Positions 90 through 41,800 of a stretch of 42,350 nucleotides of DNA are shown one piece after another. Each line of letters begins with the position of its first letter. The first letter of the stretch is position 1. The notes beneath the pieces are model-generated. The model was not told the DNA's origin. It saw only the letters and a list, made by a program, of their open reading frames with translations, and ran no database searches. This DNA is from Catajapyx aquilonaris (Eukaryota), in contig JYFJ02003406.1 of assembly GCA_000934665.2 (NCBI GenBank), forward strand, positions 1 to 42,350, given 5' to 3'. The position numbers and the translations under genes are program-made.

Positions 90-981
90 TAATAATATAA
101 TTACAATAATAATAATATGCAATATAAATATAAATAAATTAGCATGATATAATTAAATATGAATGCCTCGTTTAATTTTGATCACGTAGTATCAGATTGT
201 ACAATCAGATTATCTACATGTATTTTGGTTTCATGCATTGTGTTGTCCAAAATAATGTACCACGTAGATCGTAGAGAGAAAAAAATTGTTAATAATATGC
301 GCGCCAAAATGAACAGTGCTGCCATCTGCAATTTGCACTCCACTTTATTTTAAAACATTCGCATTAATTCAGCTCCAAATTTCGTGTGTTGTTTAGTTGT
401 CAAAGTTAATTATTGTAATTTTTTCCAGTCCGCATAAAACCGGTACGCAAATGCTGCTTAATAACATAATATTAGTGGACACTAAGTCGCAATAGCGAAA
501 TAGCCTCAATAATGCATGCCGGAATTTGCTTCTTATTAACACCCCGTCCATCAATCACAATATATTGTGCCGTGCGTTCTCCCCGCATGAAATCAGACAA
601 CAACACTGAAAACATGCATCGACATTATTTTGTGGCCATTATAATTATTATGCCGAGATATTAGAGAGCTGCATGCGACTAGGCTGGGCAGCAGCTGTGG
701 TATTCCCAGCCGGCTTCTTCCTCCATGATGGCGGCACATCGCCGGTTGTGTGGCCGACCGTTAGCCTGAAGAGGAGTGCCTTGCCTGGGCTGCTCTGCTG
801 TGGAAAGGCCTTTGGAGAGCGCAGGTGAGGTGGGACCCCCTGGGGCACACTAGCGTTGTTGTTACGACATGAGGGTTTGTAGTCCAAGTCCTCTTTGGTG
901 TACACCGAGACCGAGGCTGTTGGGGAAGTCCACCTGCCCTGTGCCTAACCCCCTCTGGTCCACAGGTCACAACACATCAGC

Positions 982-3900
982 ATGGCATCGTCCACTCCGG
1001 GGCACGATGGCCTGGAGCAGTCGGGGAAGACGGTGGAGAGGTGCTACCAGACGGACAGCGCCTTCCAGCCCCTCCTGGAGTCCCTGGGGGTGGGGCCGCA
1101 GTCAGGACCCACCGTCAGCGGACTCAACGAGTCTGCCTACCCCACCTTGGACGGGGGGCCTGCAGGGCTGGCCCCTCTCAAGCAGCTCAACGTGCTCAAG
1201 AGGAACCCACTGCCCGCTGAGCTCCTAGAACACTTTGGACGTATCCTTTCTTAATACACTGCAAATATGAAAAACCAATATTAGATAAACATTAAAATCA
1301 AATACAGTTGGATCTGGATATAACAGATTTCAAGGGTCCCGGAAATCACTGTTATAACCGTGAGGTCTGTTACACATTATGTGTATAGAAATTTGCCGGG
1401 ACCGGTCTGTCGAGTCTGTTATAGCTGAGGCTGTTATATCCAGATTCAACTACTGTTGTTACATAAATATAAAACTAAACAAATATTTTAAAATAAATAC
1501 GCACAAATTTTTGCTATATAAACATAATTAATAGAAATATTTCGAGTCCATATAAATCAATAAACAAATATTTTGAATTAATATTAATTTAAAAACAAAT
1601 TCTTCCAGAAATGTCAATTAAAAACCAAGTTTTTCCATGCAGATTAATTTAAAAAGCAATATTTTCAATAATAAAAAATTAATAAACATATTCTTCAATA
1701 AGTCAAATTAATAACATATTCAATAAACACAAGTAAATAAACAAAATCCAAAATAATTTTTTAAAAATAAAACAAAATTTGTTCAAATAGCCTACATACA
1801 ATTAGAATTTTAAAAACACAATTTAATATACCGTATATTTAAAATGTGGATTAATAAACAAGTACATTTCAATAACTACAAATGAACTAACAAATTATGC
1901 AGATATCTGCATGAGTAGCTGTAAATGTGCATTTTTCTTAACATGTGGGCAGACATGCAGTGCAACTGTCTAATGGGCCTTTTTCCGGAGGTGGGTCGTG
2001 CTTGGCTCACAATTGATAGCGGGATATACGTCTGGGCATATGAGGATGGGTAAGTATGGGCGGATACAGGTTGGCGCATTTACTTGCATATTTTCCGCTA
2101 CAGGAGTGACCTGGCGTACTTCAACGGGCTGTCCGAGACCATCCTGAGTGTTGGGCTGCTGTCGCCCAAGCCACGTGTTTTCCAGTCGTATATTCGGTAT
2201 CTCCTGTGCCTCACGACTCCAGTGGAGATTGTGCTGCTTGGCGTGACCTTGTCCCGGCCACACGGGGCATCTGCTTATGAAGAGATGCATCTGCTTCCGG
2301 AGCCACTCTTCTCACTGCCTACCGATGGTGCCTACGTGGTGACTATTGCGGGGACGGCCTCAGGTCGAGTGTTTCTCGGGGCTAAAGACGGTTGCCTGCA
2401 TGAACTGATCTACCAGGCGGAAGACGGCTGGTTTAGTCGCAAGTGTCGGAAAGTCAACCATTCCAAGAGCGCCCTGTCTTTCCTAGTCCCTGCATTTATC
2501 TCCGCTGCTATATACGAGGAGGATCCATTGGTGCAGATTGTGGTGGATGACACCAGGAATGTGCTGTACACCCGCTCGGAAAAGGGGAGCCTACAGGTAC
2601 GGTTAATTTTTTGCTTCTAATTTGAGCTGCTAATGCAATTAACTGTCTTTTTTCAGGTGTATGACTTGGGTCTGGATGGTCAGGGCATTTCACGAGTTGC
2701 GGCACTCCATCAATCGCAGATGATGTCTCATGTGTCTCATGTTGCACGGACTGTGGACTATTCTGTGTTTCGTCCGCTGTCCGGTATATCAGTGGTGGAT
2801 CGCTCCGAGTCTCCGCATGTTCATTTGGTGGCCATCACCCACACTGGCGCCCGACTGTATTACACCACCACTTCCATCTCACATCCGACGCATCGGCCAT
2901 ACACGTTGCAATTGTTACACGTGCGATTACCACCTGGATTTGCGGCAAATGCGTCACCAGTGCGGCCTAGTCGGGTTCACATGTCTCACTACCGTCGTGG
3001 GACACTCCTGCTGTCCAGCTCCGTCTCGGAGGACAACGACGCACTGTGGGTCATCAGCAATGATCCGTTCCCATTCCAACAGTCCCTGATGGAGATGCAG
3101 TCAACCCTTAGTGTCGGTGGGAAAACCTGGGCGATGGCGGAAGTCCCTCAGCCGTCACGTACACTCGAGATCCTGGCCATATCCCAGCCATCATGCACGC
3201 CGCCTTTAGCACTCACTCAGCATGCGGAGTTGCCACGGCTCTTTGTCCTGCTCTCGGCTCAGGGCTCGGTGATTCTGACTAAAATGAGACCCGTGGACCA
3301 ACTGAAGCAGTTGCTGCTTGATTGCGGAGGACCCGACTCTGAGAGCGTGAAAGCATACTTCCAGATGAATGGCGAGGCCCAGGCGTGTGCGATGGCCCTG
3401 GTGCTCGCATGCAGAGAGGGCGTACAGGATGCGCAGATGGCCGAGTGGGCCAGGCGTGCATTTTTCCTGCACGGAGGCGAGCCGAAGGTGACACATCAGC
3501 AGGGATTTGGTGCCCAGCCGACACAAGGATATTTGCATGGTGAGCTGCATATTGGTAGTGTTTGTACTCATCTGAAGTCGCTACTTGATTGTTATAGCAG
3601 CAAGTCCGGTGATGAATATGGCATCACCAAATCCAGGCACCTACGTGCAATCTCCAGCAGGCGGATTCCATCCAGAGCTGGTGTCAACTCCTGTGTCGGC
3701 TGTCCAGGGAATGGCAACACCTATCGGGGACATCCAGTTTTCCGGGAAGCACAATGGGCTGTACCTCCATTTCTCCCGTATCGTTCGACCATTCTGGTAC
3801 ATAAAGCTGGTGCAGCCGTACCAGACTCAGCAGAAGGTCCAATATGTGAGTATGCAGCTTCGTACAGCATTTGCTTCGAGAAAACTATTTGTGTGCACAG

Positions 3901-6900
3901 ACTAATGCTAGTTCACTTTTGCTGCAGTTGACGTCCATCCTCAGCAGTAGCGACATGAGCCTGTTTTTGACCCAGCTTCATCCACTGAGAGACTTTGTTG
4001 AACGTAACTCTGAGTTGCTGATGGGCGGACCTGGACTGGTTGGTGGGTCGACTCCAGGTCCCAACATGGATGGAAGCATAACAGGGCTGTACCAAGGAAG
4101 CGTGAGGGACGGGTGGGCATTAAGTGGGGCCAACGAGACGTCCAGGATGGAATCACGCACAGAGGGACGAGCCCAGGAGCGGCAGTCGCTGATGAATCTG
4201 AAGCGATTGCTCGGACGCACCTGCCAGGTATGAAGTGCTGCGATAAAAACATTACCACCTGTAAGTCGAGCGAGACCATCACTTTTCGTATCAATATTTC
4301 AGGTTCTGTCCTTCTGGAAGGTCCTCTGTGACCACCAGTTGCACATCATTTTGGCCACTCTTCCAAAAGACCGCCAGCAGCAAGTGTCTGCTGCCACATT
4401 CCGCGACTTGGTGGTGTCCGGCTCAGAAGTGTGTGCTGCCTTGGTTAACAGCCTTATCTCTCGCTTCCTGGACGACAGTGCAAGTACGGATGCAATCAGT
4501 GAGCGACTCAGAGAAGCGTGTCCGGACATATATCGCAGAGAAGATGCGGCTTGTTCTAAGGTCAGCCACTTTCCATTGCGAAGTAGTCAAATGTGAATCG
4601 ATGTAATTAATTCCAGGCAAGTGAGCTGCTTCTGGCTGCCCGTTCTCCAGACCTGTCCCAGGGTGAGCGTGAACGTCTGCTTAGAGAAGCACTTAACCTG
4701 GCTAAGCCGATATCAGGCCAGTTGAACTTGGCTCCTCTGTGTGCACAGTTGGCCGCCTGTCGTGCCCACCGAGGGGTGGTTGAATTGTGCCTGAGCGCCG
4801 CAGCAAGGAGAGACAGTCGGAGTCTGGCTCTGAGATTTCACAAGTCCGGTCGACCCGAGGCTGACAGGCAAGGGTATCAGGCGTACCTAGAAAGGAAGCA
4901 GTGTTATCAGCCTGTGTTGGACCTGCTTGGAGCACTGTCGTCTAAAGCAGGAACAGGACATCTTCGGGCTTCCGTGTTGCCTCAGGTGCCTGGGCCTCCT
5001 CCGCCTGCTGATCCAACGCAGATGGCACCGTCACAGGCTAAGGAATACGTAAGTGGCTTTTGTTCCGTAACGTCATTGGTCCTGTTCTCATGCATTGATA
5101 TGTTCCAGGCAGAACAGATGTTTGCCATGTGCTTGGAGAGTGACGACGAGCTTTTCCATGTGTCCCTGTACGAGTGGTTGGTTGAGCAGAAAATGTACGA
5201 GGAACTTCTGGAGATCCGCCATCCTTTCCTGGAAGCCTTCCTCCAGCATACGACGCAGGCCATGCAGGAAGAAGGGGCCAACCGATCAGTCCTCGACTTG
5301 CTCTGGAAGTACTACGAGAGGAATCGCAATTATCTTGCTGCTGCCAACATTCTCGCCAAGCTTGCTGAAAGACATGAGTGAGTATATCGATTGGTTGTGG
5401 AGTTTATTTAGTATGAGACTTATTGCCTCATCTTTCGTACAGCCCAACGGTGAGCCTGGGTCATCGCCTGGAGTATCTCTCACGTGCCATAATGTGCCTG
5501 AAGAGCACCGACGCCTGCCTGATCCCTCCGACCCAGGGTGAGTTCCTGCATGAACTGGAAGAGAAGATGGAAGTCGCCCGAGTCCAACTCCTAGTGCTGG
5601 ACACACTCAAGGTTGCAGGGATCGGTTACGGAAGTCAACAGACATTCCTGGAGGATGCAATCTCCAGACTCAACTGCGACCTTCTGGACATCACCCAGCT
5701 GTATGAGGAGTATGCTCAGCGCTTCCAGTTGTGGGAGTGCAAACTTGCGATTCTGCATTGCGCTGGGCACTTTGACGCTATTTTAGTCGAAAATGTGTGG
5801 AGCAACATCATTCAAGGAGGTGAGTTGAGCTCGTCACTTGTCAGGTTCATGCAAATCGCTGACACTTCGTTTGATTCCAGAGCTTCAGCGCACCATGGGA
5901 GAGGCTCCAGACATAAAGATCGAGGCAATCCAGACGAAAATCAAATCACTAGGAAAGCTGTATGCTTCTTCTCAGAAGTTCTTCCCACTTGGTATGTCCG
6001 CAGATGTTTCTCTGTTGTCTAATAAGGCATCATCAGCATTGCGTGGACTAGTTTGCTACTGTGAAATTTATGCAAGGAAAACATGAACTAATGAGTACGT
6101 TTGGGGCCTTTTTTTCGCAGAATATCTGGTAAAGCATCTGGAGATAATATCTTGCAAGCAGATGGGTCCCCTCCAGTGGGTATTCTCGGTGATGCTGGAG
6201 GTTGGCATCCCAGTGCAGCGTTTGGTGCACGTCTACAATAGACTGAGTCTGGCCAACGACCTCGTATGGCAGAGCGAGAGGCAACCGCTCAGACTCCTCG
6301 AGGTTCTTGCGGAGCTGCTTGATCGATTCTGCGACAAGCCAACACTTGTGCCAATTGTTGAAAGGTGAGGAGCATGCCTTTTGAATTGCAGAAGATTATT
6401 TGCACCAATATTTGAAATGCAAGTCCAAATATGCGTAAGTAAGGCACTGGCCATAAGTAAGGCAAACCTTATTGAGATAACTTCAGATAATGTATTTCAA
6501 GTCCCATTCTCGGAATGACTGATCTGTGTTTTGCAAAGCAGTTGAGGCAAAATACAGATAGTGTAGTGCAAAGCCGTAATGGGTCCGGATAACAATCTTC
6601 AGATAGGAAAAGGATTTCTTAAAGCCAAAAGTAAGGCAAAGGCGGCTTTTCTTCACAAGAACATTTCTGACGGCAGAGACAGCTCTTTAGGTGCACCACG
6701 ATATCGGGAGATGAAAGACTCCAGATAAGACAATATCCATGCCCTTTGTGACTTCCTCCATAAATAAAATGAAGCCGTACGAAGTGAAAATTTTCTGGCA
6801 ATGATCAATTTATGCCACATAATATCCTCTGCTATTAGGTTCATCTTAACAAGGTTTTCCGATAGAGAGCGCCTGTTTATCTGTACATTAATAATTTCGA

Positions 6901-7840: not shown

Positions 7841-10678
7841 ATGAAGGCAGAGGACAGGGCTTTCGTGTTGGTGTGTTTGTTGCAGGCGGTGTGTGGCGTG
7901 AAGGGGCAAATGCTGTGCAGAAGCAGCCGTCTTAACGAGTCGACAGATGAGAAGTTCGTGGAAGGTTTCTACAAGAGTAACAATGTGGAGTTTGTGGTGA
8001 TATATCCCGAGGATTCATCTGGGGAAGTGTGGAAGGAGGAGTGCGAATGCGAGCCACCTTCGATGGTGCGGATGGAGGGAGACGTAATGGTGAGTGTTGT
8101 GGTGTACTGATTAATTACATGGTACAACAAATGTAATGGATGTGTGGGATAGAGTTGGCATTAATTTTCGTTAGGTCGCCTATATGCAATAGTATGTACC
8201 TTTAGTTCAATGCATTCACTTTTGCTTATTTCTGGATATGACTGGATGTATTTGCACATCTAATCTTGACATGTCAGGGTCTATTGATAGTGTTAAGCTT
8301 TGTTTATCTTGTCCTCTGCCTGAAATATTAGCATCATAAACTAACGAGTAATGAAAACACATCAGTAATGCGACTTTTCTCTTGTGCACAGTGGTGTGAT
8401 GTCTTGGATGTGTACGAGGCGGAAGAACACTATGATTGCAGCAGTGGTACTGGTCGTTACCCAACCAATGCTACATCATCATCAAACGGAACATGCTTCC
8501 AAGGGTTTTACCAATGTGATGACTACGGAAACAAAAGCATAACTTTTACCAATAAAACTACGTGCGATGATGGCCTTTTCTTCAACATTGCTAGAGGAGT
8601 ATGTGATTATTCAGCGAATATTAAAGAATGCTGGCCGAAAAAAAATGTTAGCTGCTCCCATCCTGGAATATTTCCCATCATTGATGGGAAACTCTGTAGT
8701 GGCTATTACATGTGTGGCAATGAGAATAATACAAAAGCAATGGAACATTGCATGCCAGGATATGCATTCAATGGGGACTTCTGCGACTTGGAGGAATTTG
8801 TCAACAGCAGCATCTGTAAGCCTAAGATGTGTCCATGTCAAGGTACTGCGCAGGTGGCGGGTTGCACAACGGGTATGGTGTGTGATGAAGCTGGAAGTCA
8901 ACCGGATGCCATAACCTGTGACGAAGGTAACCTGTTTGACACTGGGACGAAATCGTGCTTGCGGGCACATGATGTCGTGTGCGATCCAAGGAGCGATGTC
9001 GATTGCAACCCACCGTCGTTGCAATGTGAGTGTGAAGGAGCGTACGCATCTGTTGGTTGCGGTGTCGGATATTTGTGCCCAAGGGCGGGCCAACCGGCAA
9101 ATTTGGTGCAATGCCCAGAACATTCTCATTTTGACACCTTGTCCTTATCATGTGGTGTCAATAAGTCAAACTGCGAGACGGAACTGAAGTGTGGTACATG
9201 TGGGTGCATCGGATCGTATGTGTCTTCACGTAATTGCAGTGTCGGGTACACATGCGATGCACCAGGTACATCAGCACACGTGACTTACTGTCAAGGTGGG
9301 ACCTCGTACGACACTGACTCGCAAGAATGCCAAGCTAGCAGCACCTGCCTTCCTGAAATACATTGCTATGTGTCTGGAACAATGCGAATGGTAGTGAATA
9401 TACTTGTGGGAATATCGACCGGACTCATTGCATTTGGCATGGTCATGTTCGTGTTGCGACCAGTGTCCACCCGTGATCACACTCTCTTCATAGGCACTGT
9501 GTTGGCATCGCTTATTGCAGCCAAGGCATGTTACATGGCCATTGTGGCTAATGCCACCAACTATGTACGTATGATATTTCAACGTTTGTTGCTATTGCAC
9601 ACTAACAATTTCTCCTTTACATAGGAATTTTCATTCGGTTCTGTTGGTGCATTGCTGCACGTATTTTACATGAACGTACTGCTGGTAATGGCTGTGGAAC
9701 TAACTGCGGTGTACATGCAATTGCGCTCACAACCCCTGCCCTACTCGTTCTTGCTGCCGGCTTATTTCATCACATGGGGTAAGTACAAATTGAAATTCCC
9801 AAAACGGTGTGTTCACAGAATCAGACGTTTTCATGGTTTTATTATGACAGCCATACCAGCTGTAATAGTTGGTGCAACAGTCGGTGGAAATGGAACCAAT
9901 TCGTACCTGTTTCTGAGTGCAAGTCAGACCTTCTTTAGGATTGACTGGGATTCTTCAGCTATCTACACATTCGGAGTGTCGATTGCAGTAGCGCTCCTGG
10001 TACGCCACATCATGTTGAGATCAGATGCCGGATGTCTTACCAAACTTTTAATATGCAGGTGGTCATCTCCTTCCTGGCAGGCTTGCTGTGGATGTGGTGC
10101 CGAGACAAAACGGACTCAATTTCAGACGGACGCCTTGAGTAAGAATCGAACTGACTGCGAGTACTCACGTGGACATTTCATGAGGAACAATTTGTTTGCA
10201 GGTGTGACATGCGCGTGTGCGTTGGAGGCACCCCAGCCATATTGGCAACATGGTCTCTTGCCACTCTGACATTCAGCACTCAGGATGATGTGCCTGGTGG
10301 ACTTTTTGCAGCTTTTGCATTCTTGGAGGTTAGAATAACTAGTATGAAATGAGGGCTTTAGATATTTAATCTGGATATTTTAATATTTCAAATCAGGGTG
10401 CCCTCCTGCTGATCCTCTTGTGGGTTGGGACACGTCCTCGTGGACGTGTCAGCTTCTTTGCGTCTGTTGCTGAATTGTGTCACTGGGAAGGAAGGGTCGG
10501 CCCATTAGGATCCACTGCTGAGAGACCCCAAGGCTCTTCCGTGGCTGGTCCATCTGGAGCAGCAGCTCCGAGACTTTCCATCTCGAGCTGGGGATCTGGA
10601 AATTCCTCCTCCGCCTCCACTGCGTCTGGAATAGGCGAGTTTCTGTCCGCAAAGTTTTATGTACCGGTATCGCCATAG
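7841..10678 (+). CDS. Chitin-binding (peritrophin-A/CBM14 x5) seven-transmembrane receptor, class-B GPCR-like, about 737 aa
   Basis: Exons 7841-8089, 8392-9564, 9625-9778, 9851-9999, 10059-10138, 10202-10328, 10397-10678, all GT-AG and phase-compatible. Signal-like N-terminus (AFVLVCLLQAVCG), Cys-rich repeats, seven hydrophobic segments with LLHVF..M..E...Y (TM3), W-AIPAVIV (TM4), LATW (TM6), LF..F..LEG (TM7), then a Ser-rich tail. The 3' end may extend into 10778-10920. Confidence 0.85.
8437..9348 (+). other. Array of five chitin-binding type 2 (peritrophin-A/CBM14) domains
   Basis: Six-Cys spacing with aromatic motifs: CFQGFYQC..CDDGLFFNIARGVCDY..C; CSGYYMC..CMPGYAFNGDFCD..C; CTTGMVC..CDEGNLFDTGTKSC..C; CGVGYLC..CPEHSHFDTLSLSC..C; CSVGYTC..CQGGTSYDTDSQEC..C. 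Confidence 0.85.
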
Positions 10679-12729
10679 TGCATATGGATACTGCTGAAGT
10701 GCCTATTGTACAAATTGTTCATTGCATGTGAAAGTTGGATGGTTATGTGATTGTGGTCATTCTTATTTCAATTGCAGAGACACAGCAAACTGGATGGATG
10801 CACCAGAGTGGTTCGCAGGAAGCACCAGCAAGGAGAGAAGATATACTTCAAAGCACCGAGGAACGTGATTGGTGGCAGTTTCAGCAACCGCAAGTCCACC
10901 GAAGATTGCCACGGCCATAGTAACAGGGTTTCAAAAGGCAACCCCTTGTGTTTTACAGTGTGGCACAGCCTACGTATCCTTGGCTAAAATAATAACTTTC
11001 CTCATGCTGGAAATGTAATACTATATAAGCATCATGGAGGCCAGTGTTTTGAAAGGACTAATTGGGCTATACATTGGCCGAAAGCTGCACCTTCATTGGC
11101 TGAGTTTGCTCAGTCTACAGTGACAATCTGCTCTGCGTAATCAACAGAACTGCTATCCACTTTTCAGGAATTGTATGCACAAGTGAAATGTACGACTTGC
11201 AGCCGAGAAAGCAGAAGAGAATCTCTTCAACCTTCATTTACTCGCATTTACGCCCCATAATATTGCTGCTGCACGATAACTCTGGACTGGTCAGTTCAGC
11301 ATTCCCTGCCACCTCTATTTTAACAGTGGAAACATTTTTCTTCAGAAACGATGCGCCGTCATTTCGATGCACCTGTAAAGTGAAGTGATTCCGACAAATC
11401 TGAGTTGCACCTTATATGTTACACAAATTATGTCATGGTTTTCCAATTAAAACTGCAACTCATCTGAATGTTTGGTATCTTCCTCCTTTATTGCCCTCAG
11501 GACACAAAAAAAAAGGACGAGAGCAAATTGTTGAGATAATTAACGGCAGTCACAAGAGCTATTTTTCGTACTTTGTATAGCTACATCAGCGACACATACC
11601 CTGTATCTTAGTAATTAATACTTCACTTTTTTTTTAAATTGTATAAATGTTATCCGCACTTTTCGAAGTAAGACAGTCCATGTCGTCGTATTATGACCGT
11701 TTTCAACAATACAGCATTACAACAAAAATATCGTCAGTGTTCACAATACTTGTGTTGGGAACATGCCGTGCAAAAGACACGTGAAATAACATTTCAGAAA
11801 TTATTATTATGCTCAGAGTCTGATACTTAAAGACTCATCTTTATACTGGAACAGTTACTGCACGGCAATGTCCAACTCTATACAGTACTATCCACTTAAA
11901 TAACTTATAGTAACAAATAATGGTTAACATGCGAACAGTAAACAAAGACGGGATAATACTCTTTGAAGTCTTGGTTTTTTGGAGTTTATCGATCACGCAC
12001 ACACATTTCAGTCAGGCAACAGGAAAAATTGTGCCAAGTAACAGTTACCGAAAAAAGAGTCAACAGTTAAGACATGTATTGTAACCCACCAAAAAAAGGA
12101 AGCGTGAAGCGTGTTACGTTCAAGATTTTCAAAGTTGAGTTGATGTTAGGTTGAAATGGTTATAATACGTTTGTTAATTTCCGCACAAGATATGAGTGCT
12201 TTGGGTTACAGTAAAGCTTTAATGCGCATAGAACAGTGATGCAGTATAGTGTCTAAAAAAAAAATCTGGATTATATTGTACACTACAACTTCCTCATCGA
12301 TATACTCTGGACAAAATATAAACGTTCCCTGTTACATTTCATCTGAGTTCAGTTTTACGGGTGCGAGCCACCCATGTAATCATACGCAGTCATCCCTTTT
12401 ATTTGGGCAAAAATTGGACACCATAGCATTTCGTACAGCTGCGAAAAGCACAGTATTTTGGGAGGTGGCAAAAAGATGTCAAGCGGCAAAAGGCACCTTC
12501 TTGCTTAAACCTGCAGTCTAATATTTCAAAGAAATCAGAAAGCGGCACGGACATGTTTTACTCAGAGAAACGTAGTGATTGTGTGTAGGATATGAAAGTG
12601 AAGCCAAGAAGTCTTATGGGCGATATTCCAGTAACGACTTACTGTTTAATTGAAATCATTCCACCTGATATATTGTTTGTATTTATCACAAAAGGTCAGT
12701 TTTATGGTTGTAACACAACTACTGCGGAG

Positions 12730-14092: not shown

Positions 14093-17000
14093 TTAGAGTA
14101 GGACGCAAAGAGTACCGTGGCAACCACCAGGCAGCAGCGGATGGGTGGAGATGTTAGATGTGGGTAAGAAAGGGACTTTGGTTGCATTCCTCCGAAGGTG
14201 AGTGTTCACTGATGACAAAAAATAAGTGTTGTCGGTTCATGCAGGGTGTCACTACACAAAATAATTATCAATTGGTGGTATCTAACAACCACCTGTCCCC
14301 ACATTCACAAAAAAATTGTTAACGGGGAGTTATTGATAACAACAAAAAACTACCAGTAGTTGTTGTTGCTCCGGTTGATGGAAAGAGGAGATATCTACTT
14401 GGGTTAATAAGTCTCACCTGAGAGCTTGCTACTGCTTAGTGAGGCATCAGATAAGCGCACCTGGTTGCCGGCGGAGGTCAACACCAGGGTCGACTCTCTT
14501 CGGGGATTAGCCATTTCTTGGAGAGGGTACCAATGGGGCTGCTCGTCCAGCACGTTCGGATCTGGAAATTACAAGCAAATTAAAGCTCGCCATATAATTA
14601 TGATATAAAAAATACAAACGTGCGGGTTTCGGACTTTTCTCTCAATCAACGGCATCAGTGTGCCCAGTGTCAGCACTCTCAGTAGTGTGAAAGTGTGTTA
14701 GGTAACCCGGACATACAAACTCACTCATTTATAAATATCGAGACTGGATCAAATCCTACATTTTGGGCATTAGGACTCAAAAGTGGTTAGTTTTGGGACT
14801 TTTTCCCACAATGTGCCACTCTCAGTAGTCCGAAAGTGGGTTAGGTAACCCGGACACACAGACAAATTTTTATGCTTTATTATGTAAGGTATAAATTGTG
14901 CCACTCCGATGGAAATTTCTTTCAACCATAACCTTATGACCATCGTCTATAGTTTACTCATAAGTGTTTACGCCATACATATGTGACATGTGATAATAAT
15001 TTTAGAAACCTTCCAAATGCCACTTACCAGCCAGATCTAGCACCACTTCTCCCAGGAACTCGTTGGGTTTGTAGATGTCGTGACTCCAGGCAGTGACTTC
15101 CAGATAACGTTTCTTCAAATCCTCCTGTCGTATGTTGGGATAAACCATGGTCTGGTTCCACTCTGGCTCACTGATGCGGTTGAAGTACCTGGTGCGTCTC
15201 TGGTTCTCAACCCTGTACAGAGAGGTGTGTACATTACCAGAACATTGACTTAGGTCAGTGAGAGACATACGTTCTTCCAGGCAGGAGGTACACCTTGATG
15301 AAAGGATCAGGCCTGGAGTCGCCATCGTCTCTGGATATCATCAGACCTCTGGCTTGCAACACAGTCACGTACAGTATGAGAGCTCTCATATCATAACACA
15401 CCTGAAGATGTATTTCGCCCAGTGGGAAACAAGCTGCTCTCAGCACCTGAATCAAAACAAATGATCAAATAGCACTGATCACCACATTAAACATTTTTTT
15501 CACTTGCCCTCTCATGAGATGACCTCCGTTCCATGGTGCTTTCAGTGGATCTCGGTGGCCTCTCTGCTGGTTGGGAATGAGATGAACCTGGCCTAGAAGG
15601 CGGTTGGGACGAGGCCATTCTGCCTACTGGAGATGAATCTCGATCTGGAGATGTCCTAGGCGAATGGAGACACCGGAAGCTGCTTCCGTCCTCATCCAGA
15701 CATGGAGGAGGCCTGGCTCTCAGCAAGGACTGCCGGTGGCCCATTTCCAAGGAGGACTGCCGGTGACCCACTTCCAAGGAGGACTGCCGGTGACCCACTT
15801 CCAAGGAGGACTGCCGGTGACCCATTTCCATGGAGGACTGACGATGACCCATGTCCAGAGGCGAACAGCCGTCTGCTCCTTGGCAGCCTTTACCTAAGTG
15901 CAGGTGAGATTTGTAGTAAACTGGAGCATTTGACTGGCTAACTGTGCCATTAAAATTTTTAATGAGCGATAATAGGGACACTTTATTTGTAACAGAGGTC
16001 ACAATAATTGAATACTAACTTGGTTCGCAATCTCCTGAGTCAAATGATGAGTCTTTGATTCCCGAAGCTCCAGCACCTGAAGATCCTTGGTGTCTGTTGC
16101 AGCTGTTTCCGTTGATGTCGATATGGTTGTTGTTGTAGAGGTCACTGCCTCGACGGACGTGACCTTTCCTGGGCGGTTTGGACGGGGGTGTCACTTTTCC
16201 GGTGACCACGTTGAATCCACTGCGGGTCACAAAGAGTGTGAATCACTTGCAACGGAAAAAAATGGTGCAATTAACGTACCTGCGAATTATAATCTCGATT
16301 TCACCTTCGGATTGAGACACGATTTGCTGAACTTCCTCGAACGTCTTGTCGGTCAAAGGTACTCCATTCCACTCCAACACTTGATCCCCTGTCGATTTGG
16401 GCAACAAAACATATCCAGTGAGTGACCCCTTTTGAACTGCGACCCCCCTTTTCCCGCCCAATTTCCTGTACCTTCTTTAACTTCTCCTAAAGTTTCGACT
16501 ACTCCTCCTGGGTATATTTTGGACACATAGGCCCCCATATGACCCGGTGACCCCGGGATTTCCTTTCCACCGATCACCTTCATGCCCAATCCATTACCTA
16601 CAAGAAAGGGTCGTCGGCCTAAAGACAAACACAGACCGAGGGGTTACGACGCAATTCCAAAAACTCAACAATAAAATTTAAAATCAGAATAATTAATAAA
16701 CGCTGTAGTAATGAAAAAGTCAGACGTGTACAACTACTTCTGTTGTTAATGAGGTATAATAGGGCACTAAAGCACACATTTATTAAAGTCTAGCTAAAAA
16801 AAGTTACAGTTAACGTCTACTTATACTCTACCTAATGACGTGTGATCCACATTGATAGTGACAATAACACTTTTCTAGCTACATTATGCAGTAGTGTTAC
16901 AAAACTAACATGACACAATTTGCTGAAATAATGTCTACCCTTTAAAGAGGTGGTCCTGTACATTTAAATGCAACATATTTTGTTTTTGTTGTTGTCGACT

Positions 17001-32000: not shown

Positions 32001-35000
32001 CCGGCTGTTTTTTTTGGCGAAAATTTGTCAGTTTTGACGACTACAATAGTGAGTTCCGGACACATTGTCTTAACAATGAGTCACCTGAGGCTGATGCGGT
32101 CCTGCGGAGGCTGAGACTTACTCCTCTCTCTTCTCCTGCTGGACGGCAGAGGCGCTGCTTCTTGGTCTGCCGGGAGAGCGGGGAGTTTGCGTCGGATGCG
32201 AAGCGATTTTTGCGAATCCGTTTCGCTCATGGTATCGGAAGAGTCGCCGCCTGCGTCTCGAGAACTGCGGGGAGTGCCCACTGGCGTGCCTTGTGGCGTA
32301 CCAAGTGGGGTCACTGCTAAAAAATCCGCTAGACATTAGGAAAGAATCGGTCAAAAATTTGACAGCCGATCGAAATCAGATCAAAATCAGGATTTGACTA
32401 ATCAATTGCGCTTTTGAAGGAAGGAAAAATAAACTAAACAGAACGAATCAATTTTGAGTCGAATTATATATTTTTGGGGGGCACGTGTCAGGTACAAGGT
32501 TGGACCATGTACCTGGTACCTCGCCTACTCGCATTGTATCGGATGGAAAACTAAAAAGATGTAAACGAACTGAAAAATAGGTTCGTAAACTAGGGTTCAT
32601 ACCGCAGTTCTGTCTGTTCCGCAACTTTTCCGGACTCTTCCGTAAAATATTCCATGAAATATTGTTGTACTACACACTAGGTTGTAGGCCATGAGCTGTT
32701 CACAGCCTTATGTTGTAGTAGTAGGAAGTAGTAGTAGTAGTACAGTAGAAGTAGGGTTCGACGCTTTCGGAACCACCTGTTTTGTTTTCTACACTACCAG
32801 AAACTGACCTGTGAGTCCCTGCTGGTACAACGAAGCTCCTGTAAGTCCTTGAGATACAACAACGCCAGGAACCGAACCCACACCCATCTGCCCCATTTGC
32901 AACATGCTGGAAAGACCAGCAGTGCCTAACATGTCTCGTCTAAGCGGTTGAGGAGACAATGGTTTTTGCATCTGGAACAAAATGTTCATATTGCGGATGT
33001 TGGATCTGGAATCTTTTGAAGTCTTTTGTCCGGACTTACAGCGACTTGTTGCAGTGCCTGCTCAGTTCTTCGACTTCTCCTCTGATGAGGAGATAACTGT
33101 GGATGTGCAGTTTGCTGCACTTGTATTTGTTGAGGAGAGGTGCTGCTGACCTGAGATTGAGGCGTGACTAGCGTGCCACCATGTGTCAAGGCGTGGTAGT
33201 GACCGCTGACCATAGGCTGACCATGGACATACACTGCCTGAGGTTGCTGCTGTGCCTGTTGCTGCTGGCCAAAAGTGACTGTCAGAAATAGTTTTATGTA
33301 TTTTATGCGAAACTTTTACCGGTTGTTGCGAGTACAGAAGTGGATGCTGCTGTGTGAGGACATATGCTGGAGTCCCTGTCTGGGCTCCTCCTTGTTGATG
33401 GAGAAGATGCTGGAGGTCACCTCCAGCTGCGTAGTAAGCAGCTTGTTGCGCTTGAGTCAACTGAGCGTGCTGCTGTTGTAAAGGCCCGTACACTGTGGCA
33501 CCTGGAGAGATGTCCATTCCAGGTACTGCTCCGGGTTGGAGGACCTGAAGACCTTGCATCCCCGCAGCCTGCTGGGATTGGAGCAATGCTTGTTGTTGTT
33601 GGCTCAGGGTGTAAGGTGTGGTGCCTATTCCCATGCTGGTGGGAGCTGAGGAGTAGGCCAGATGGTGTTGGTGTTGCAGGTGGGTCTGATGGTCCGAAGT
33701 GGCACCAAAAGTGCTGGTTGGAGGCTTCTCTTCGGATGGGGATGGCCGGGGGGATATCCCGCTCAGACCTGGTTTACAACAAATGGGTAAATGATTGAAA
33801 CCTGATGGACAAATCAACTGATATGGATTTACCCAAAGCTCTGCTAAAATCGGCGAGCATCCCACTGATGGTACCGGTACTGGCTTTAGTAGTTTGGACT
33901 TGATGCTGCTGTTGCTGTTGCTGCTGGGTTGATGTCACGATGCCCAGTTTTTGTTGCTGCAGCATCTGCTGCTGTGCAGTCAGTCCTGACATGGAGGTGA
34001 CCACTCCCATGCGACTCATGTCCATCACACCCTTGTCCTGAAGAGATTGTCAAAGCAGTTGAGTGGAAGTGGGGCCTCTGTAATGCCTGCAAACAGTGTT
34101 GCTTTCGAGGTGAACATTTTGCAATAACACACCGGGAGGAAAGAAACTTGCGAGCTCCTCAACACCAATATTCAAGTGCGACACATCCATGGATTGCATC
34201 TTTCCAGAAGGGTTTTCGCAATAAAAATGATAAGACGTACTTTTCACACACATTGAGCTGCATAGAAAAGTTATGAATGGGTGGGGTATTTACTGTACCT
34301 GTGGCGCATAGGATCTGAGCAAAAGGTACAAATTGCAGTGGATATTATATTTATACAATATATTCACAAAATGTTGTTTCGGCTAAATTTAATTTTCTGT
34401 CCAAGAAAACATTTCACTCTGGAATAAGTCTAGAATATTAATTTTGTCACCATTGTTGACAAATATATTCCAACCAGAAAAATGTTTCCTGGAGGTGGTG
34501 CAACCGGACCTAAATATTACAAACGACATTGTTGAACTGAAATATTAAAATATAGAGTTGTACGTAGATGTTATATAACTGCTTCATATTCCAATAATAG
34601 GAACCTTAATTACGGTACTTTCTTAGTTACTTTCTGTCTGGTATACTTAATATTTGCATATCGGTACTCTTGCATAGTATTCTGCTAATGTGGCCTATTT
34701 TGTGCAATTTTTAAATAATTTGTGTTATTTTGCTCAGATGTTCCAAACGCCACCGAACATATCGGCGAACACGATTTTTCGACAGAAGTTTTAAAAAACA
34801 CATGTGACCTTACGCAATGTCCATCTCTCCACATCATTTTTCTCTAATGAGGTCAGGAGTTTCCTAAGAGGTGTTGGAGGGCCGAATATATTAACGCAAC
34901 AAAAAGCCAAAAAACAAATTGACCCAAGGAGAAAGCGACGCAAGGAAGGCAGAAAAAGCGAGGAGCAGTTTGTAATATATATATTTTTTGAATCTTTTGG

Positions 35001-37914
35001 TGCTGATTTTTTTTCTTTTTACCTGAAACCGTTTCATGAGCTCCTGCTCCGCTCTTTCAATCGACGGAGAAACGTCCAAGATGGGGGAAAGGTCTGTGAC
35101 GGGCGACCAGTCAGCTGGTTCTGGTTTTGGCGCCCTCGTCTTCTTCCCGCCCGTCTGCTGCTTTACGGAGTGCGGGCAAAATTCAGGGGGGTTTGAATTG
35201 TTGTAATTTGTGAGATATTGGCGGGGATCATTTGTTAAAGGGGGAACCACAGCAACATAGGGAATTATGGAGGAGGAGGGGGGGAAGGGATTTTTGAGAG
35301 AGAAAAAGGTGTTCTAATTAGTGGCAAAGCTGGCGTCTCGACACAGGTTATTTGTTGTTTTTGGGGGCGTTCCAACAGTCATTAATAACATATAGTGCGT
35401 CACATGGAATCACACATGTGATGCATTTGCTAACGAGGATCAGTCAGATATATCCAGCTTTTGCATGAGTCAGAAGGCACCTCTGGATGTCAATCTTTTT
35501 AAAAATTCCTGCCATTCATATAAAAGAGAATCTCGTGTTGATTAGGATATGTTTAAAAAAAAGAGCAGTGCTCTACCATATTTGAAACGATGATACAATA
35601 TTGTATGCCTAAAATAAAGGTACAGGAGTATGAAGCACATATAAATTCCACTAAACATGATCTGAAATAAATTGACTATTTATAAACGTTATTTTAACTT
35701 GAAACAGTTCATCTACTTAGAGAGTTGGAAAAAGACTCTGATGATCATGATCGTATTTTAATTATAATTATGGATTAAGCTGCATGTACGAGTCCGATGG
35801 CGAAAAGATCTGATACATGGACAGCATAATTATTATTATTTCGTCAAAATATCATTCTCAACCTCTCTAGAGCATGTTAATTACACATTAAACAATTAGG
35901 TACCAAGTAACCATCATATGCTGACGGACACTAACGTGGAGAAATAGTACGAATCTATTATTTACTATTTATGATTGATATATTATAATATCCTAGTTTG
36001 TTGTCTGGGTGCCATCTAACCATGAGAGCTGGATACGAAAAAGCAGGTGGAAGAGAAAGAATGTGGAGAGATAGAGACAGAGGAAGAGAAAGAGGCCACA
36101 TATTATCTACAGAGGAATAAATGAACAGAGCGAAGAGTTTGGTACACAAGCGTATAGAGGGGGGGGGGGAAGTCATACGTGGAGAGAGGGCATAAAAATA
36201 GGCCAATAGTCACCAATAGATATGAGAACAACAGCGTGGGATTCGGCAAGAAAAAAAGTAAATGAGGGGCGCAGCGTATGTAGGCGCACAGAAAAATAGT
36301 ATAGAGCAAAAAGCTGCAGTCCTGACCCCTTGTCAACAATGAATCACACAACAAACGTGGACAACAATTCTCGCAAAAAAAATGGCATCTGTTGCGGTAT
36401 CAGAGAGGAAAATTGTATTTTTATTGCGTTGCGACACAACCTTGGCTGAAAATATTCGGTGCTGCGAAGCTTTTCTTCTGCCACAACGGTCATTACCATG
36501 AGCGTCACCATCACCACCACATCAACAACAACAACAGCAAGGACAACAACGAAAGCTAGTGTTGCCAAAGCGACGATTTGCTGTCAGTGACCTAAATATG
36601 TGCATCTAGTTTCCAGCTATAGGGAGGTTCATTAGGCTTAGGCCCTGCTATTGGCGCTCTAAGGACTCATAGGCCTAATTAGTGGGAGGGGTGTAAGTGA
36701 AGCTACAGTTTGTTCTAATTAGGGGACAGCTACAAATTTCACTACATCTGGCAACAATACTAACCTGGAAATCTATGGGTTTCGGTTTTGGTTTTGTACT
36801 AAGGCCATCTGATTGGGATAACTGTTGTTGCTGTTGCTGTTGTTGCTGAAGCTGCATCAGTTGCTGCTGCAGCTGCTGTTGTAGCTGTTGCTGCTGTGAC
36901 GGTGATGCTGTTGCATCCACTGCCTGCGCAGCTAAAAACTGCGCTTGCAACGTATCCTGGATCAACTGTGGTTGTTGCTGGGGCTGCTGTTGCTGCTGTT
37001 GTTGGATTGGTTGCGGTTGTTGTTGGTTTGGTTGGGTTAAAGGAAATGCCTGGCTGTTCGACACTACTGGTTGGGCCGACTGTAAAAAGAATAACGTTTG
37101 CAAAAAATAGAAATAACCCCTATCGACATATCGTGGTCCAAATAATTCCTCTCTGGTATCGCGCGAGTTTTGTTTACACAGTGCCCTTGTTTATTTATCG
37201 CAAACGTTCGTCAAATTACCTGCATCGGACGCAAAAGCCGGTCTGGATCCATTTGCTGTGTCGTAGGAGCCATCATACTACTCGGTGCCACCTCATTTGC
37301 TGTCATGGATTGTGTTCTGCAAAAAAAGGTTCTTTCCATGTCTCAGTCTTTCTCTATTTTTTAAAGCAAGAAATCCTCACTATATCTTGGCGAAGTTGGT
37401 TTCTAACGATAGATAAGAAAATGTAGATTCTAATTGTGCAATCAGTTATTATCAGTACTGAACGGTAAGTCCAGGAAAAGATGTCAAAATTGAGGATTGG
37501 TCTTTCAGCTTTCATGTATCGACAAAATTTGATTTCTATATATAGAAATCAAAATTAGCGATTTGATTTGAAAAGCCAGACTTGATTTCAACGATGACTT
37601 ACGTTCCGGAAAACCTAGTCATCGTGGGCCTTGGAGCGGTGTGAGCCTGCTGATCTATTATCTGGGTTGTGTGCTGTTGCTGATAGGGATCCTCTTTGCT
37701 AATTTGCGGTCTAATTGGCTGCTGCACACCACCGGTGAAAGAGTTGTATTGATCCCATGCCTGGGATACTTGAGGTCCTCGCTGACGTATGCCTGCATCT
37801 ACCTCCATAATGTCTGCAGAGAATGGTTTCAAGTCAATATTCAGCTGGAACATATGAAATTGATTGGTTTTTACCTGGTGGTTTCTGAACGGTGCCTATC
37901 ATGGAGGAAAGCGG

Positions 37915-37961
<47 letters not shown>

Positions 37962-38828
37962 GCAGTGTCTGTTGGGCTAGCGATACGGGTTGTTGCTGCA
38001 TTCCAAGTCCAACTGCTGCAGGTTGCTGCAACTGCTGCTGTTGAAGTTGTTGCTGCTGCTGCAGTTGCTGCTGTTGCAATTGCTGTTGCTGTTGTTGCAA
38101 TTGCTGTTGCTTCAAGTCATGTTGCTGCTGAATTTTTTGCTGCTGCAAGTCGTGCTGCTGTTGCTGAATTTTTGCCTGCTGTTGTTGCAGCTGTTGTTGT
38201 TGTAACTGCTGTTGCTGCTGGATTTGTTGCTGTTGTTGTTGCAATTGCTGCTGTTGCTGTTGAATTTGTTGCTGCTGAAGTTGCTGCTGCTGATGGATTT
38301 GTTGCTGTTGTTGCGCTAGCTGTTGCTGCTGCAGCGTCGGTTGCCCTTGCTGCTGAAGCTGTCCTGTTTGTTGCAGTCCCGTTTGTAGCTGCCCCGGCTG
38401 TATTTGCCCTGTCTGAATTTGCCCCGACTGAATCTGTCCAGGTTGTAATTGACCCGTTTGTTGCAACCCCGTTTGTTGCAACCCCGTTTGCTGTAACTGT
38501 CCAGGTTGTTGCATCTGTCCTGGTTGGTGTAGTTGCCCCGTTTGTTGCAACTGTCCTGGTTGCTGCAACTGTCCAGGTTGCTGCAGAGGCCCCATATGAC
38601 CTGGCTGCTGCAGAGGCGAGTGTTGCTGTTGCATTTGGGGCTGTTGTTGTCCAGGTAGACCCATACCCATCCCTGGTCCAGGTGGTCCTCTGGGAGGACC
38701 TTGCTGCATATGCGGTCCTCTAGGTCCTCCCATCACACCTGCAGGTCCATCTAATGACCTCTGAGGTCGCAACTGAGGACCTACAAACCTACGCCTCGGG
38801 CCTCCAAGCTCACCCATTGGCTGAATCC
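14093..38828 (-). CDS. PCLO: Piccolo/Fife-like presynaptic active-zone scaffold (5' part lies beyond the identified exons)
   Basis: Minus-strand exons in order: 38828-37875, 37813-37603, 37316-37220, 37079-36765, 35160-35023, 34037-33833, 33768-33320, 33264-33040, 32971-32809, 32316-32085, 31838-31654, 30461-30202, 28865-28675, 28320-28173, about 27332-27028, 24576-23750, (23599-23586?), 19724-19521, 18583-18493, 16597-16472, 16388-16280, 16219-16020, about 15941-15508, 15446-15271, 15212-15028, 14561-14418, 14208-14093. The PDZ ([35 protein letters not shown]) and C2 ([19 protein letters not shown]) match Piccolo, as does the RRQLSDPK motif. The first identified exon starts in phase 1, so upstream exons are missing. 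Confidence 0.88.
14418..15446 (-). other. C2A domain exons of Piccolo-like gene
   Basis: [93 protein letters not shown]. Confidence 0.93.
14676..14860. repeat. Intronic direct repeat, two copies of about 43 bp
   Basis: ACTCTCAGTAGT(GT/CC)GAAAGTG(T/G)GTTAGGTAACCCGGACA(T/C)ACA at about 14675-14717 and 14818-14860; probably a transposon remnant. Confidence 0.75.
15721..15856 (-). repeat. Coding 27-bp tandem repeat, five copies of (D/E)(M/V)GHRQS(S/L)(M/L)
   Basis: Plus-strand unit GGAGGACTGCCGGTGACCCA(C/T)TTCCA(A/T) repeats in the exon between the PDZ and C2A. Confidence 0.92.
16280..18583 (-). other. PDZ domain exons of Piccolo-like gene
   Basis: [96 protein letters not shown] over three exons. 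Confidence 0.93.
21362..21395. other. Small assembly ambiguity (N run between homopolymers)
   Basis: NNNNN at 21383-21387 between poly-T and poly-G; a further single N sits in the poly-G at 27692. Confidence 0.9.
37914..38650 (-). repeat. Coding polyglutamine and QQ(P/T)GQL repeats
   Basis: Pure (CAA)n run at about 37914-37961, mixed CAA/CAG Q-tracts interrupted by L/I, and hexapeptide [17 protein letters not shown] repeats at about 38350-38610. Confidence 0.93.
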
Positions 38829-41800
38829 CTGAAATCAAACGGAAACGAAATATTGCTGTCTCATCCAGCATCAGACTGTTGAAAATATATCGTGAAAGCT
38901 ACTTTGGCACATGATATGTGACTTGCACTTGCAATAAATAATCAACATCCAAGGAATGACGCTCCAATCTAGCGAAAACAGTTTCAAGTGCGTATCACGT
39001 AGCAGTAAATGGAAGGCTTCTGTTACACTCCTCCGCTGTGAGATCTAATCTCATGATATAGGTCGTCCTGGGAGCGTGACCATAACTGTCAGTACAATTA
39101 TCAGCAGCAAGGCTTTGCGTCGGATAAAAAACTAGCGCTTGCAATTAAAATGGAGCAGGAGTCGCAAATTTCTTTTATGCAGAAGGTTAGAATTGCAAAC
39201 ATTGTGAGGTCCCATAATTTGGTTCCACCTGAGCTAAATGGCCGCTAATATTTTGTAACGCAAAACCAAATGTAGGTGCAGAGCTTGGCAGAGGTCATGT
39301 CAAGGCGAGTATCAGACCACATAACTGAATTAAGGTTCCTTTTACAGGGTGATCCAACCCGAATCGTCTGATTTTATATTTAATATTTTAGGTCAAATGT
39401 GCTTTTTTTACGAGCATATTAAGTAGTTAGTCTGTAACTGGTAGTTAAAAATTACTGCCAATGATAAGTTGTGGCCTTGAATCAATCCCATGTTTATCTT
39501 GATAATAAATTAAAATAATAAAATCATACTATATTGTGATGGAAGAATTTCTCTGAAATCTGGCAAAAAAAAATCTCAATGAACTAGAAAAAGGTAGCAA
39601 TTCTCAGCAGAACCTTCTAGTCGATGTCGGCCGCACCCAGACGCATCGTGTTTCTCACGAAGATTACTTTAAGGCTCAAAAAGAATCACAAGTCGCGCCC
39701 CAAGGAGCCCAGAAAACGGAAGGTGGCCCCACCCACCCAAAGGCAAACTGATCATTAATCTGAGCTTTTAGCAAGTGAAGGGAATGGAAGGATATACCCC
39801 CAAGACGATTAAAGTTTCTTCTGCGGAACCCGTCGAACCAAGACAATCGTGGGGGCCGCAGATATGAAAGGATTTCCCTCTAGAGTTGCGCGAGAAACCC
39901 TGGCTGCAAGGTATCGATCAACTTTGGAGGATCTCAAGCTATACCAACCACCAATATATGTCTCCCCTCCTCTTTCAACTACTGGGTTTTGTTGCCTTCA
40001 CCTTTTGACTACTAGATTACTTCACAGAAAATTGAATTCAGTGAGGTGGAGACCATGTTTTTCTCTCAATTTCAAGGGGGGCTGTCTCCTGCCATAATTA
40101 AACTGGTAAACACTTATCGTCTTCCAGCGGAAATGTCGTCAACTTCATCAGGCCAAGGGCGTTTCGTCGTCAGGTCGTGAACGCAGTTGACACAACGACG
40201 GTCTAGATTTTTTTTTTTCGATTTCCAGTGAGGGTTAACTGCGGTTTTTTTTATCGAAGTGTCAACTCGATTGCAGGAGTTTATTTGTAGAAGACTACAG
40301 GGTGGGGCAAAATTTGGTTCATTTATTGAGGTTCTTTGCTGTATTTCAAGGATAGTTCAGAAAACTTGCAGAAATATCTGAACTCTAGTGGTACTACCTA
40401 TAATTTGTATGACAGTGGCAATTAAAAAATTTAATGACATGGCCTGCCGATTTACCACGTAGTACTGTTTTTCACGCATAGATGGCGCACCCTCCATCTG
40501 CATACACCTGCCACCCTCAGGTCGTGCGAGAGATAGCGATCGGTCGGACAAATCTCCGACGGAGAGAATAAGCCTATTAGGAGAAAGATATTGCACCGAC
40601 CAAAATGGCAGCCAGTCACATATCATGATCACCAAAAAAAAATGTGTGTAAACTACGAAAACTACTAAAAGAGCATGCATGTAAAGAGAGACGACATAGC
40701 AGCCCCCCATAAAAAATAACAATTAGCAACTACCGACTAATATTTGTCATATTTTTTCCACCCACACACAAAGCTTCCGTCTTTTGGGTTTTGGATTGCG
40801 TGTGACTGCTTGTGGTACAATGTCTGTAATTTGATACTTACCACCGCATTGCAGGGGAAGCGTAACTTTTTTTATTGCAAAAAACTCTAACGGGTTTCGT
40901 ACGTGATAATTATTTTATAGTGCGCAGAAACGTGATTATTGAAAAACGCATGGGTGTATTATTTAAAAAAAATTTTGCGAACAGCCGAACGCAAAACTAA
41001 CAGACACATTTGGCAATCAAGATTGATTCATACTTCCCTGCATTGTCATCAAAAGTACGGATATATAAATATAATAATATGGTGGCGAAGTGAGGAGGAG
41101 GTTTGGCGAATATAATTTGCTCAAGTCATAACGATATATTTCCCAACTAATTCTATATTTTACCAAAGTTCGAGAGGACGCAACTTACAAAGAGACACAG
41201 ATGATTATACTGATTGCGATAAAATGGGAAAGAGAGTTTGTACTTACAGGGTTATTGCTTCTTGTCGGGTGCCGTGTTCCTTGGAATAATGCGCAGAGTA
41301 ATTCTAAGGCTTTAAAGCGGCCACGCTTTCGAATCCGACATTACGTGAAAACATTTTTAGGTGCAAAGGATTCATTCCAGTAATCACACTTTATATTACT
41401 CTGATTATTTTAAAAACATGTAAATAAGCAGCATTGTTGGATGAGACCTACTCGTGCAATATTCATAACATACCGAGACATATTGTTTTCAGGTATTGTT
41501 AGTGAAAGACCTGGAAGTAATCCTTCAGCACGAGTCGAATTCTTTCCTCGTGACTTAGGCCACGTCAAATTATTTATTTAAAAAAAATTATCATTAAGCG
41601 AGATTGAAAGCCACCAATAGGTTCAAAACAGAAAGAAAAAATAACTTACAAAAATGAGACCAGAGTTTTTCCACCAGTAACATGCTGCATGCTGAGAAAA
41701 ATGTCACGGAAAGCGCCAATCACAATCATAATGCACAAGTACAATAAATTTCACAGGAAGTGACACAATTCGCAGATGTATGTTTCTATCATATTTTTTT

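Follow-up and report, generated by a model that had tools for sequence, protein, structure and literature searches.

A candidate seven-transmembrane receptor with an array of CBM14 modules in Catajapyx aquilonaris, and its partly supported relation to family-B G-protein-coupled receptors

We analysed a stretch of 42,350 nucleotides (nt) of Catajapyx aquilonaris DNA (assembly GCA_000934665.2, contig JYFJ02003406.1; hereafter the window) and describe here a gene on its + strand at positions 7841-10678. In the map of stop-to-stop open reading frames (ORFs) the coding fragments switch frame along the locus, and joining seven exons gave one reading frame of 2214 nt, consisting of 737 codons and a stop codon, with no internal stops. 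An in-frame stop lies immediately upstream of the ATG at 7841, and this ATG starts a hydrophobic segment resembling a signal peptide. Five repeats of the CBM14 (peritrophin-A) type follow, then seven hydrophobic segments and a Ser-rich tail, and the gene product is probably a modular seven-transmembrane (7TM) receptor with a CBM14 ectodomain. The elements of the gene model are as follows (aa, amino acids; TM, transmembrane segment; ECL and ICL, extracellular and intracellular loop).

Exon 1, 7841-8089 (+): start codon, signal peptide and a 60-aa stretch ending in C-x-C
Signal peptide, 7841-7906 (+), about aa 1-22: hydrophobic peak at aa 8-26
Exon 2, 8392-9564 (+): five CBM14 repeats, TM1 and TM2, uninterrupted
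CBM14 repeat 1, 8425-8643 (+): the best-conserved repeat; 31.5 bits, E = 2e-07
CBM14 repeat 2, 8644-8826 (+): 21.2 bits, E = 3.2e-4; six Cys in register
CBM14-like repeat 3, 8827-9009 (+): 19.2 bits, E = 1.4e-3; extra-Cys subtype
CBM14-like repeat 4, 9010-9195 (+): 14.0 bits, E = 0.056; extra-Cys subtype, 31-37% identity to repeats 3 and 5
CBM14-like repeat 5, 9196-9372 (+): 18.1 bits, E = 0.003; extra-Cys subtype, last Cys about 8 residues before TM1
TM1, 9388-9456 (+), aa 416-438: hydropathy peak 2.42; helix in the AlphaFold2 model with a predicted local distance difference test score (pLDDT) of 64-77
TM2, 9487-9555 (+), aa 449-471: hydropathy peak 1.88; helix in the AlphaFold2 model
Exon 3, 9625-9778 (+): TM3 and the first part of TM4, up to the Trp plus one base of the following Gly codon
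TM3, 9637-9705 (+): motif L-L-H-x-F...M..E....Y
TM4, 9742-9882 (+), across intron 3: exons 3 and 4
Exon 4, 9851-9999 (+): remainder of TM4, ECL2 with an N-G-T sequon, start of TM5
TM5, 9961-10094 (+), across intron 4: exons 4 and 5
Exon 5, 10059-10138 (+): remainder of TM5 and a basic ICL3
Exon 6, 10202-10328 (+): TM6, ECL3 and the start of TM7
TM6, 10215-10283 (+): motif P-x-x-L-x-T-W; weak hydropathy (1.13)
TM7, 10296-10432 (+), across intron 6: motif L-E|G, divided between exons 6 and 7
Exon 7, 10397-10678 (+): remainder of TM7, cytoplasmic tail (Arg-rich at its start, rich in Ser, Gly and Ala) and stop codon (10676-10678)

All six introns of the model run from GT to AG and measure 302, 60, 72, 59, 63 and 68 nt (introns 1 to 6). 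Their donors (GTGAGT, GTACGT, GTAAGT, GTACGC, GTAAGA and GTTAGA, in the same order) are good, and the acceptors are pyrimidine-rich and end in (C/T)AG. The G+C fraction (GC) was 0.47-0.56 in exons compared to 0.25-0.43 in introns, with all seven exons richer than all six introns. The 430-aa stop-to-stop ORF that contains exon 2 ranks second in length among the 53 ORFs of 110 aa or more found in the window. Intron 3 is a phase 1 intron placed after the first base of the Gly codon behind the TM4 Trp, intron 5 falls in ICL3, and intron 6 is a phase 0 intron between Glu644 and Gly645 of TM7. An earlier reading of this DNA (the original prediction) had joined the fragments into one frame with a signal peptide, five repeats of six Cys, seven TM helices and a Ser-rich tail, and had placed a phase 1 intron after the TM4 Trp and a phase 0 intron before the TM7 Gly; the frame, the repeats, the seven segments and both introns were confirmed.

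Against this gene model stand the exon junctions themselves, which were deduced from the DNA, and the number of other junctions that could be drawn. We enumerated GT..AG pairs of 40-500 nt that leave the frame open and found, with the chosen pair counted in, 73, 14, 63, 27, 8 and 25 pairs for junctions 1 to 6, respectively. The model could therefore be partly wrong, in that the product might end after exon 2 (giving a two-helix CBM14 anchor, for example by retention of intron 2), use other junctions or carry a different last exon, and the seven TM segments would then be an artefact of exon chaining; an intron 3 that is in frame and free of stops, and a good acceptor near 10778 that opens the ORF 10751-10987, point in the same direction. 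However, most of the alternative pairs remove coding sequence or have poor sites, whereas the chosen pairs have good consensus sequences, are among the best-matching splice sites and retain most of the open frame. The acceptor at 9625 is common to all 14 pairs at junction 2, and there are only two acceptors at junction 5. The six introns are AT-richer than every exon, no other gene start occurs between 9565 and 10678, and the five exons downstream of exon 2 supply exactly five more hydrophobic segments with alternating loop charge, an outcome that would be hard to obtain by chance from unrelated sequence. A faulty model of this kind appears improbable.

Variant transcripts of the locus can also be drawn. 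A transcript retaining intron 3 (72 nt) would encode 24 extra residues midway through TM4. Intron 2, with 60 nt, likewise preserves the frame, but its terminal TAG is a stop codon and the acceptor AG at once, and read-through would continue for 19 codons to this stop. A possible alternative 3' end (10659-10987, +) consists of a donor, TAT|GTACCG, six codons before the stop codon and the pyrimidine-rich CAG acceptor near 10778, and its use would swap the last residues for a basic stretch of about 69 aa in the frame of ORF 10751-10987. This stretch had no family match. The wrong joining of two neighbouring genes was considered and rejected, as the repeats and TM1-2 form one exon and neither a start nor any other sign of a separate gene occurs between exon 2 and exon 7.

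Exon 2 matched the Pfam family CBM_14 (PF01607; E = 1.2e-12, 48.1 bits compared to a cutoff of 22.1) in five stretches, and this was the sole family found there. When the repeats were scanned singly, CBM_14 was the top family for all five (bit scores are listed above). A MAFFT alignment gave six Cys columns common to the five repeats with all 30 repeat Cys in register, and these results support the proposed assignment of the repeats to CBM14/peritrophin-A. Repeats 3-5 make up a subtype with an extra leading C-x-C and an extra trailing Cys and have 28-37% mutual identity. In total the ectodomain contains 39 Cys and 10 N-x-S/T sequons. The five repeats and TM1-2 lie on the single exon 8392-9564 in an uninterrupted open frame, in agreement with the original prediction, and the fusion of the repeats to TM1-2 needs no splicing because both sit in the exon 2 ORF.

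Conserved aromatic residues of the sugar-binding face of CBM14 matter for sugar binding. Repeats 1 and 2 retain both aromatics of the Cys2-Cys3 pair as well as one following Cys4, and one aromatic of the pair is left in repeats 4 and 5. Two features of the ectodomain count against a chitin-sensing receptor: repeat 1 alone exceeds the CBM_14 cutoff, with repeats 2-5 individually below it, and in repeat 3 the Cys2-Cys3 aromatic pair is gone. The 60-aa stretch of exon 1 behind the signal peptide matched no Pfam family. The end of exon 1 (8041-8089) has a C-x-C as found at the start of repeats 3-5, and the start of exon 2 (8392-8400) adds one Cys; together they may be the remnant of a half-repeat split by intron 1. 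The C-x-C region of exon 1 had no Pfam match.

The only sequence relatives found were secreted multi-CBM14 proteins. An exhaustive phmmer search of exon 2 against 1.84 billion cluster representatives resulted in six matches at E up to 0.001, with a best E of 4.2e-11. Peritrophins, CPAP/obstructor proteins and further secreted proteins of this multi-CBM14 kind share with the product of this gene a signal peptide followed by six-Cys CBM14 modules in tandem. To our knowledge, the CBM14 proteins that are known to bind chitin are secreted and have structural or enzymatic roles. The gene product differs from the multi-CBM14 proteins in its seven helices and cytoplasmic tail, compared to at most one hydrophobic segment in all six matches, and in the two extra Cys of repeats 3-5. 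Five of the six matches were scanned with Pfam, and CBM_14 was the only strong family in each, with no 7TM family. No protein scored among 1495 candidates in a word-index search of exon 2 against longer proteins, and none of 895 candidates did so with TM3-5 at E up to 1. Pattern matches in metagenome contigs (53 for exon 2 and 596 for exon 3) yielded no confirmed match, and tblastn with the spliced model found no paralog within the window. No ortholog, paralog or protein of the CBM14-7TM architecture was therefore found in the database searches made, and this absence, together with the hydropathy and Pfam content of the six matches, counts against the receptor interpretation.

It could also indicate a young lineage-specific chimera or an unexpressed relic of exon shuffling, with an open frame and no maintained function. 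The flat GC across codon positions 1, 2 and 3 (0.50/0.49/0.50 compared to 0.62/0.46/0.62 in an exon of the neighbouring Nup155 gene) is a further point against a functional receptor gene and favours such an origin, as does the divergence of the CBM14 repeats. However, a 737-codon frame over seven exons with intact splice sites, 30 Cys in register and a clean topology argues for constraint, and missing relatives are expected in an unsampled lineage. The 281-aa Nup155 exon (2657-3499, +; 49-56% identity to the best database proteins) had a best database match of 56% identity, with the best named matches (49-53%) coming from a brachiopod, spiders, bivalves and a bryozoan. Because the best match of this exon reaches only 56%, the proteome of the source animal and those of its close relatives are missing from the databases, and in a lineage so unsampled the lack of relatives is weak evidence. 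We consider a chimera or relic highly improbable.

The seven-segment call was made with Kyte-Doolittle hydropathy windows. Hydrophobic peaks after the repeats were found at aa 420-438, 450-468, 480-498, 516-534, 567-585, 606-624 and 636-654, so that the seven segments claimed originally, and not fewer, were recovered; the weakness of the sixth peak (TM6, aa 606-624; 1.13) counts against the call. The inside loops contain 2, 1 and 4 Lys and Arg residues compared to 0, 1 and 0 in the outside loops, and the first 20 residues of the tail add a further 3. This charge pattern obeys the positive-inside rule and fits a seven-helix topology with the N-terminus outside and the C-terminus inside (N-out/C-in), which is the layout of a G-protein-coupled receptor (GPCR). 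ECL2 carries one N-x-S/T sequon, TM1 follows about 8 residues after the final Cys of the repeats, and the cytoplasmic tail of 81-82 aa includes 17 Ser, 11 Gly and 10 Ala. AlphaFold2 run on exon 2 without an alignment gave a mean pLDDT of 39.5 with only the TM1-2 helices moderately confident, and on the TM3-5 fragment it gave a mean pLDDT of 53.6, both too low for use. A Foldseek search with this TM3-5 model returned 11 rows, all at E of at least 3.2 and none a GPCR, which is noise at such pLDDT. A complex prediction with three TM fragments of the gene scored 0.00; it was run without controls and is no evidence either way.

Family-B GPCRs (adhesion, secretin-like and Methuselah-like receptors) are similar to the gene product in their modular N-terminal ectodomain, their N-out/C-in 7TM part and their short motifs in TM3, TM4, TM6 and TM7. 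Class B receptors have a Glu in TM3 and QG in TM7, and the TM6 motif of adhesion GPCRs is P-L-L-G-x-T-W. The corresponding motifs of the gene product are L-L-H-x-F...M..E....Y in TM3, W-G-A-I-P in TM4, P-A-I-L-A-T-W in TM6 and L-E|G in TM7. Supplement 2 of Cardoso et al. (2006; PMC1764030), which covers TM2, TM4, TM5 and TM6 of 52 family-2 receptors, has G-W-G-x-P in TM4 and P-L-[LF]-G in TM6 in nearly all of these. The class-B motifs of the original prediction were thus found in TM3, TM4 and TM7 at the places it had stated, with the reservation that TM4 reads W-G-x-x-P and not the G-W-G-x-P of that supplement.

The gene structure was compared with that of deuterostome family-2 GPCR genes as described in the same paper (PMC1764030), in which introns lie in TM4, TM5, TM7 and ICL3, TM4, TM5 and TM7 are each split over two exons, and 'part of TM5' and 'TM6 and part of TM7' are on different exons. 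Here introns 3, 4 and 6 split TM4, TM5 and TM7, respectively, and intron 5 separates the remainder of TM5 from TM6 and the start of TM7. Each of the five introns in the 7TM region therefore has a counterpart in the family-2 layout of PMC1764030, and this agreement, at helix level only, partly supports a class-B-like placing of the introns. The intron positions had been called typical of class-B genes, and this was borne out for the helix-level layout and not for TM1 and TM2, which share exon 2 here and are on individual exons in the family-2 genes of that paper.

Several further results weigh against membership of family B. A weak match to 7tm_2 (PF00002) had been expected, and neither this nor any other 7TM Pfam family was found at E up to 10 in the exon pieces, TM1-2 (75 aa) or TM3-5 (125 aa, through intron 3). 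These profile searches used contiguous fragments of 26-125 aa and are insensitive because the pieces are so short. A phmmer search of four TM fragments against all Protein Data Bank (PDB) chains gave no match at E up to 10 and thus no solved GPCR, and the same search with exon 2 also gave none. A Cys pair joining the top of TM3 to ECL2 is a near-universal feature of GPCRs. Both ECL1 and ECL2 contain no Cys, and therefore this disulfide cannot form. Exon 2 had no Pfam match to GPS/GAIN at E up to 10, and no hormone-receptor domain (HRM) or Methuselah ectodomain was matched, with CBM_14 the sole family in exons 1-2. The motifs also depart from those of supplement 2 of PMC1764030: TM4 (T-W-G-A-I-P) is one residue longer than GWGxP, TM6 (P-A-I-L-A-T-W) keeps the Pro and replaces the Gly of P-L-[LF]-G, both being close and not exact, and TM5 is without the Pro and the Asn-Phe found in nearly all B1 sequences there. 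With the shared exon of TM1 and TM2, these differences leave the class-B assignment of the 7TM part only partly supported.

The same results suggest an explanation in which the CBM14-7TM gene is real and its helix bundle belongs not to the family-B GPCRs but to another or a new seven-pass family. Such a protein would serve mainly to attach the apical membrane to a chitin-containing matrix, be it that of cuticle, chaetae, shell or gut lining, or to organise the deposition of chitin, and would not signal through G proteins. The TM fragments matched no GPCR family and no solved GPCR, the ECL Cys pair, GAIN and HRM are all missing, TM2, TM4 and TM5 depart from the B1 patterns of supplement 2 of PMC1764030, and the nearest sequence relatives are structural multi-CBM14 proteins. 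However, seven N-out/C-in helices with a Ser-rich tail make up a GPCR layout, the order of the TM3, TM4, TM6 and TM7 motifs and the introns splitting TM4, TM5 and TM7 fit family 2, and the fragment searches were insensitive. Tethering would also need only a single-pass anchor. We consider this explanation somewhat unlikely.

The reading that we prefer, tentatively and at a little short of an even chance, is that of a receptor in which the CBM14 array binds chitin and a diverged family-B-type bundle signals via G proteins and/or the Ser-rich tail. The locus would then be an intact gene of seven exons, from an invertebrate lineage that is poorly sampled, encoding a receptor-like membrane protein of four parts, namely a cleaved signal peptide, five extracellular CBM14 modules, an N-out/C-in seven-helix bundle and a Ser-rich cytoplasmic tail. 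The 7TM part would most likely be a strongly diverged descendant of the family-B (adhesion/secretin/Methuselah-like) GPCRs in which the GAIN/GPS or hormone-binding domain was lost or never present. Repeats 1 and 2, which keep the CBM14 aromatics, could bind chitin fibres or chito-oligomers, whether these come from the chitinous matrix of the animal itself, from food or from fungi. As the last repeat is nearly on top of TM1, binding to the CBM14 array or pulling on it could be passed directly to the helix bundle, and the bundle may in turn act via G proteins, via phosphorylation of the Ser-rich tail or via both. Chitin sensing by the candidate receptor is plausible. A wider proposal, which we consider unlikely, is that an animal GPCR lineage with a CBM14-array ectodomain exists and acts as a direct sensor of chitin or chito-oligomers or as a matrix-tethered mechanosensor, coupled to G proteins without the GAIN/Stachel mechanism.

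Two known systems serve as working analogies only. Frizzled and Smoothened carry a compact disulfide-rich ligand-binding domain near a 7TM bundle and have no autoproteolytic GAIN; they differ from the gene product in the Cys-rich fold and in the 7TM family, and the Frizzled Pfam family matched no contiguous fragment. The plant LysM chitin receptors CEBiP and CERK1 report chitin across the membrane through an ectodomain of carbohydrate-binding repeats, but they are single-pass proteins with kinase signalling, and their LysM repeats are not CBM14 and are unrelated in sequence.

The CBM14-7TM fusion seems to be undescribed. No description of such a protein was found in the literature as judged by titles and abstracts, and a CBM14 ectodomain was not found for family-B GPCRs in the literature searched in this way. 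Among the matches listed, co-mentions of CBM_14 and 7tm_2 were domain lists in insect genomics, and a co-mention of ChtBD2 and GPCR came from a review on gut immunity. The original prediction had known of no characterised receptor with this architecture, and none emerged from the databases or the literature searched, but the lineage is unsampled.

The gene is flanked by other coding sequence. Directly upstream is the multi-exon nucleoporin gene Nup155 (850-6400, +), with a Nucleoporin_C match at 4611-5381 (+; E = 1.4e-47). Downstream is a C2-domain exon (15002-15337, -; E = 1.5e-08) adjoined by an ORF (15487-16014, -) with tandem peptide repeats of about 9 residues, and the two are probably parts of one gene (15002-16014, -). 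Long Gln-rich low-complexity ORFs occur on the - strand at 33062-33934, 36675-37190 and 37834-38898 and mirror Val/Ala-rich ORFs on the + strand. The two that were scanned (33062-33934 and 37834-38898, -) matched no Pfam family.

Animal-cell perception of chitin, whether in the animal's own cuticle, gut lining or shell matrix or in fungi and prey, is poorly understood. It is well known that 7TM receptors carry modular ectodomains, and these are shuffled freely in invertebrate genomes. If the receptor described here is real, CBM14 would be an unreported ectodomain among modular 7TM receptors, and if the wider proposal of a chitin-sensing GPCR lineage holds, no chitin-binding GPCR would have been described in animals before it. 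If the 7TM part proves to be related to family B, the occurrence of its conserved TM4/TM5/TM7 intron layout in a protostome-like lineage would have implications for the age of that gene structure; if not, the bundle would represent a new seven-pass family. The CBM14 array fixed to a seven-helix signalling domain offers a testable candidate for a link from chitin to the cytoplasm.

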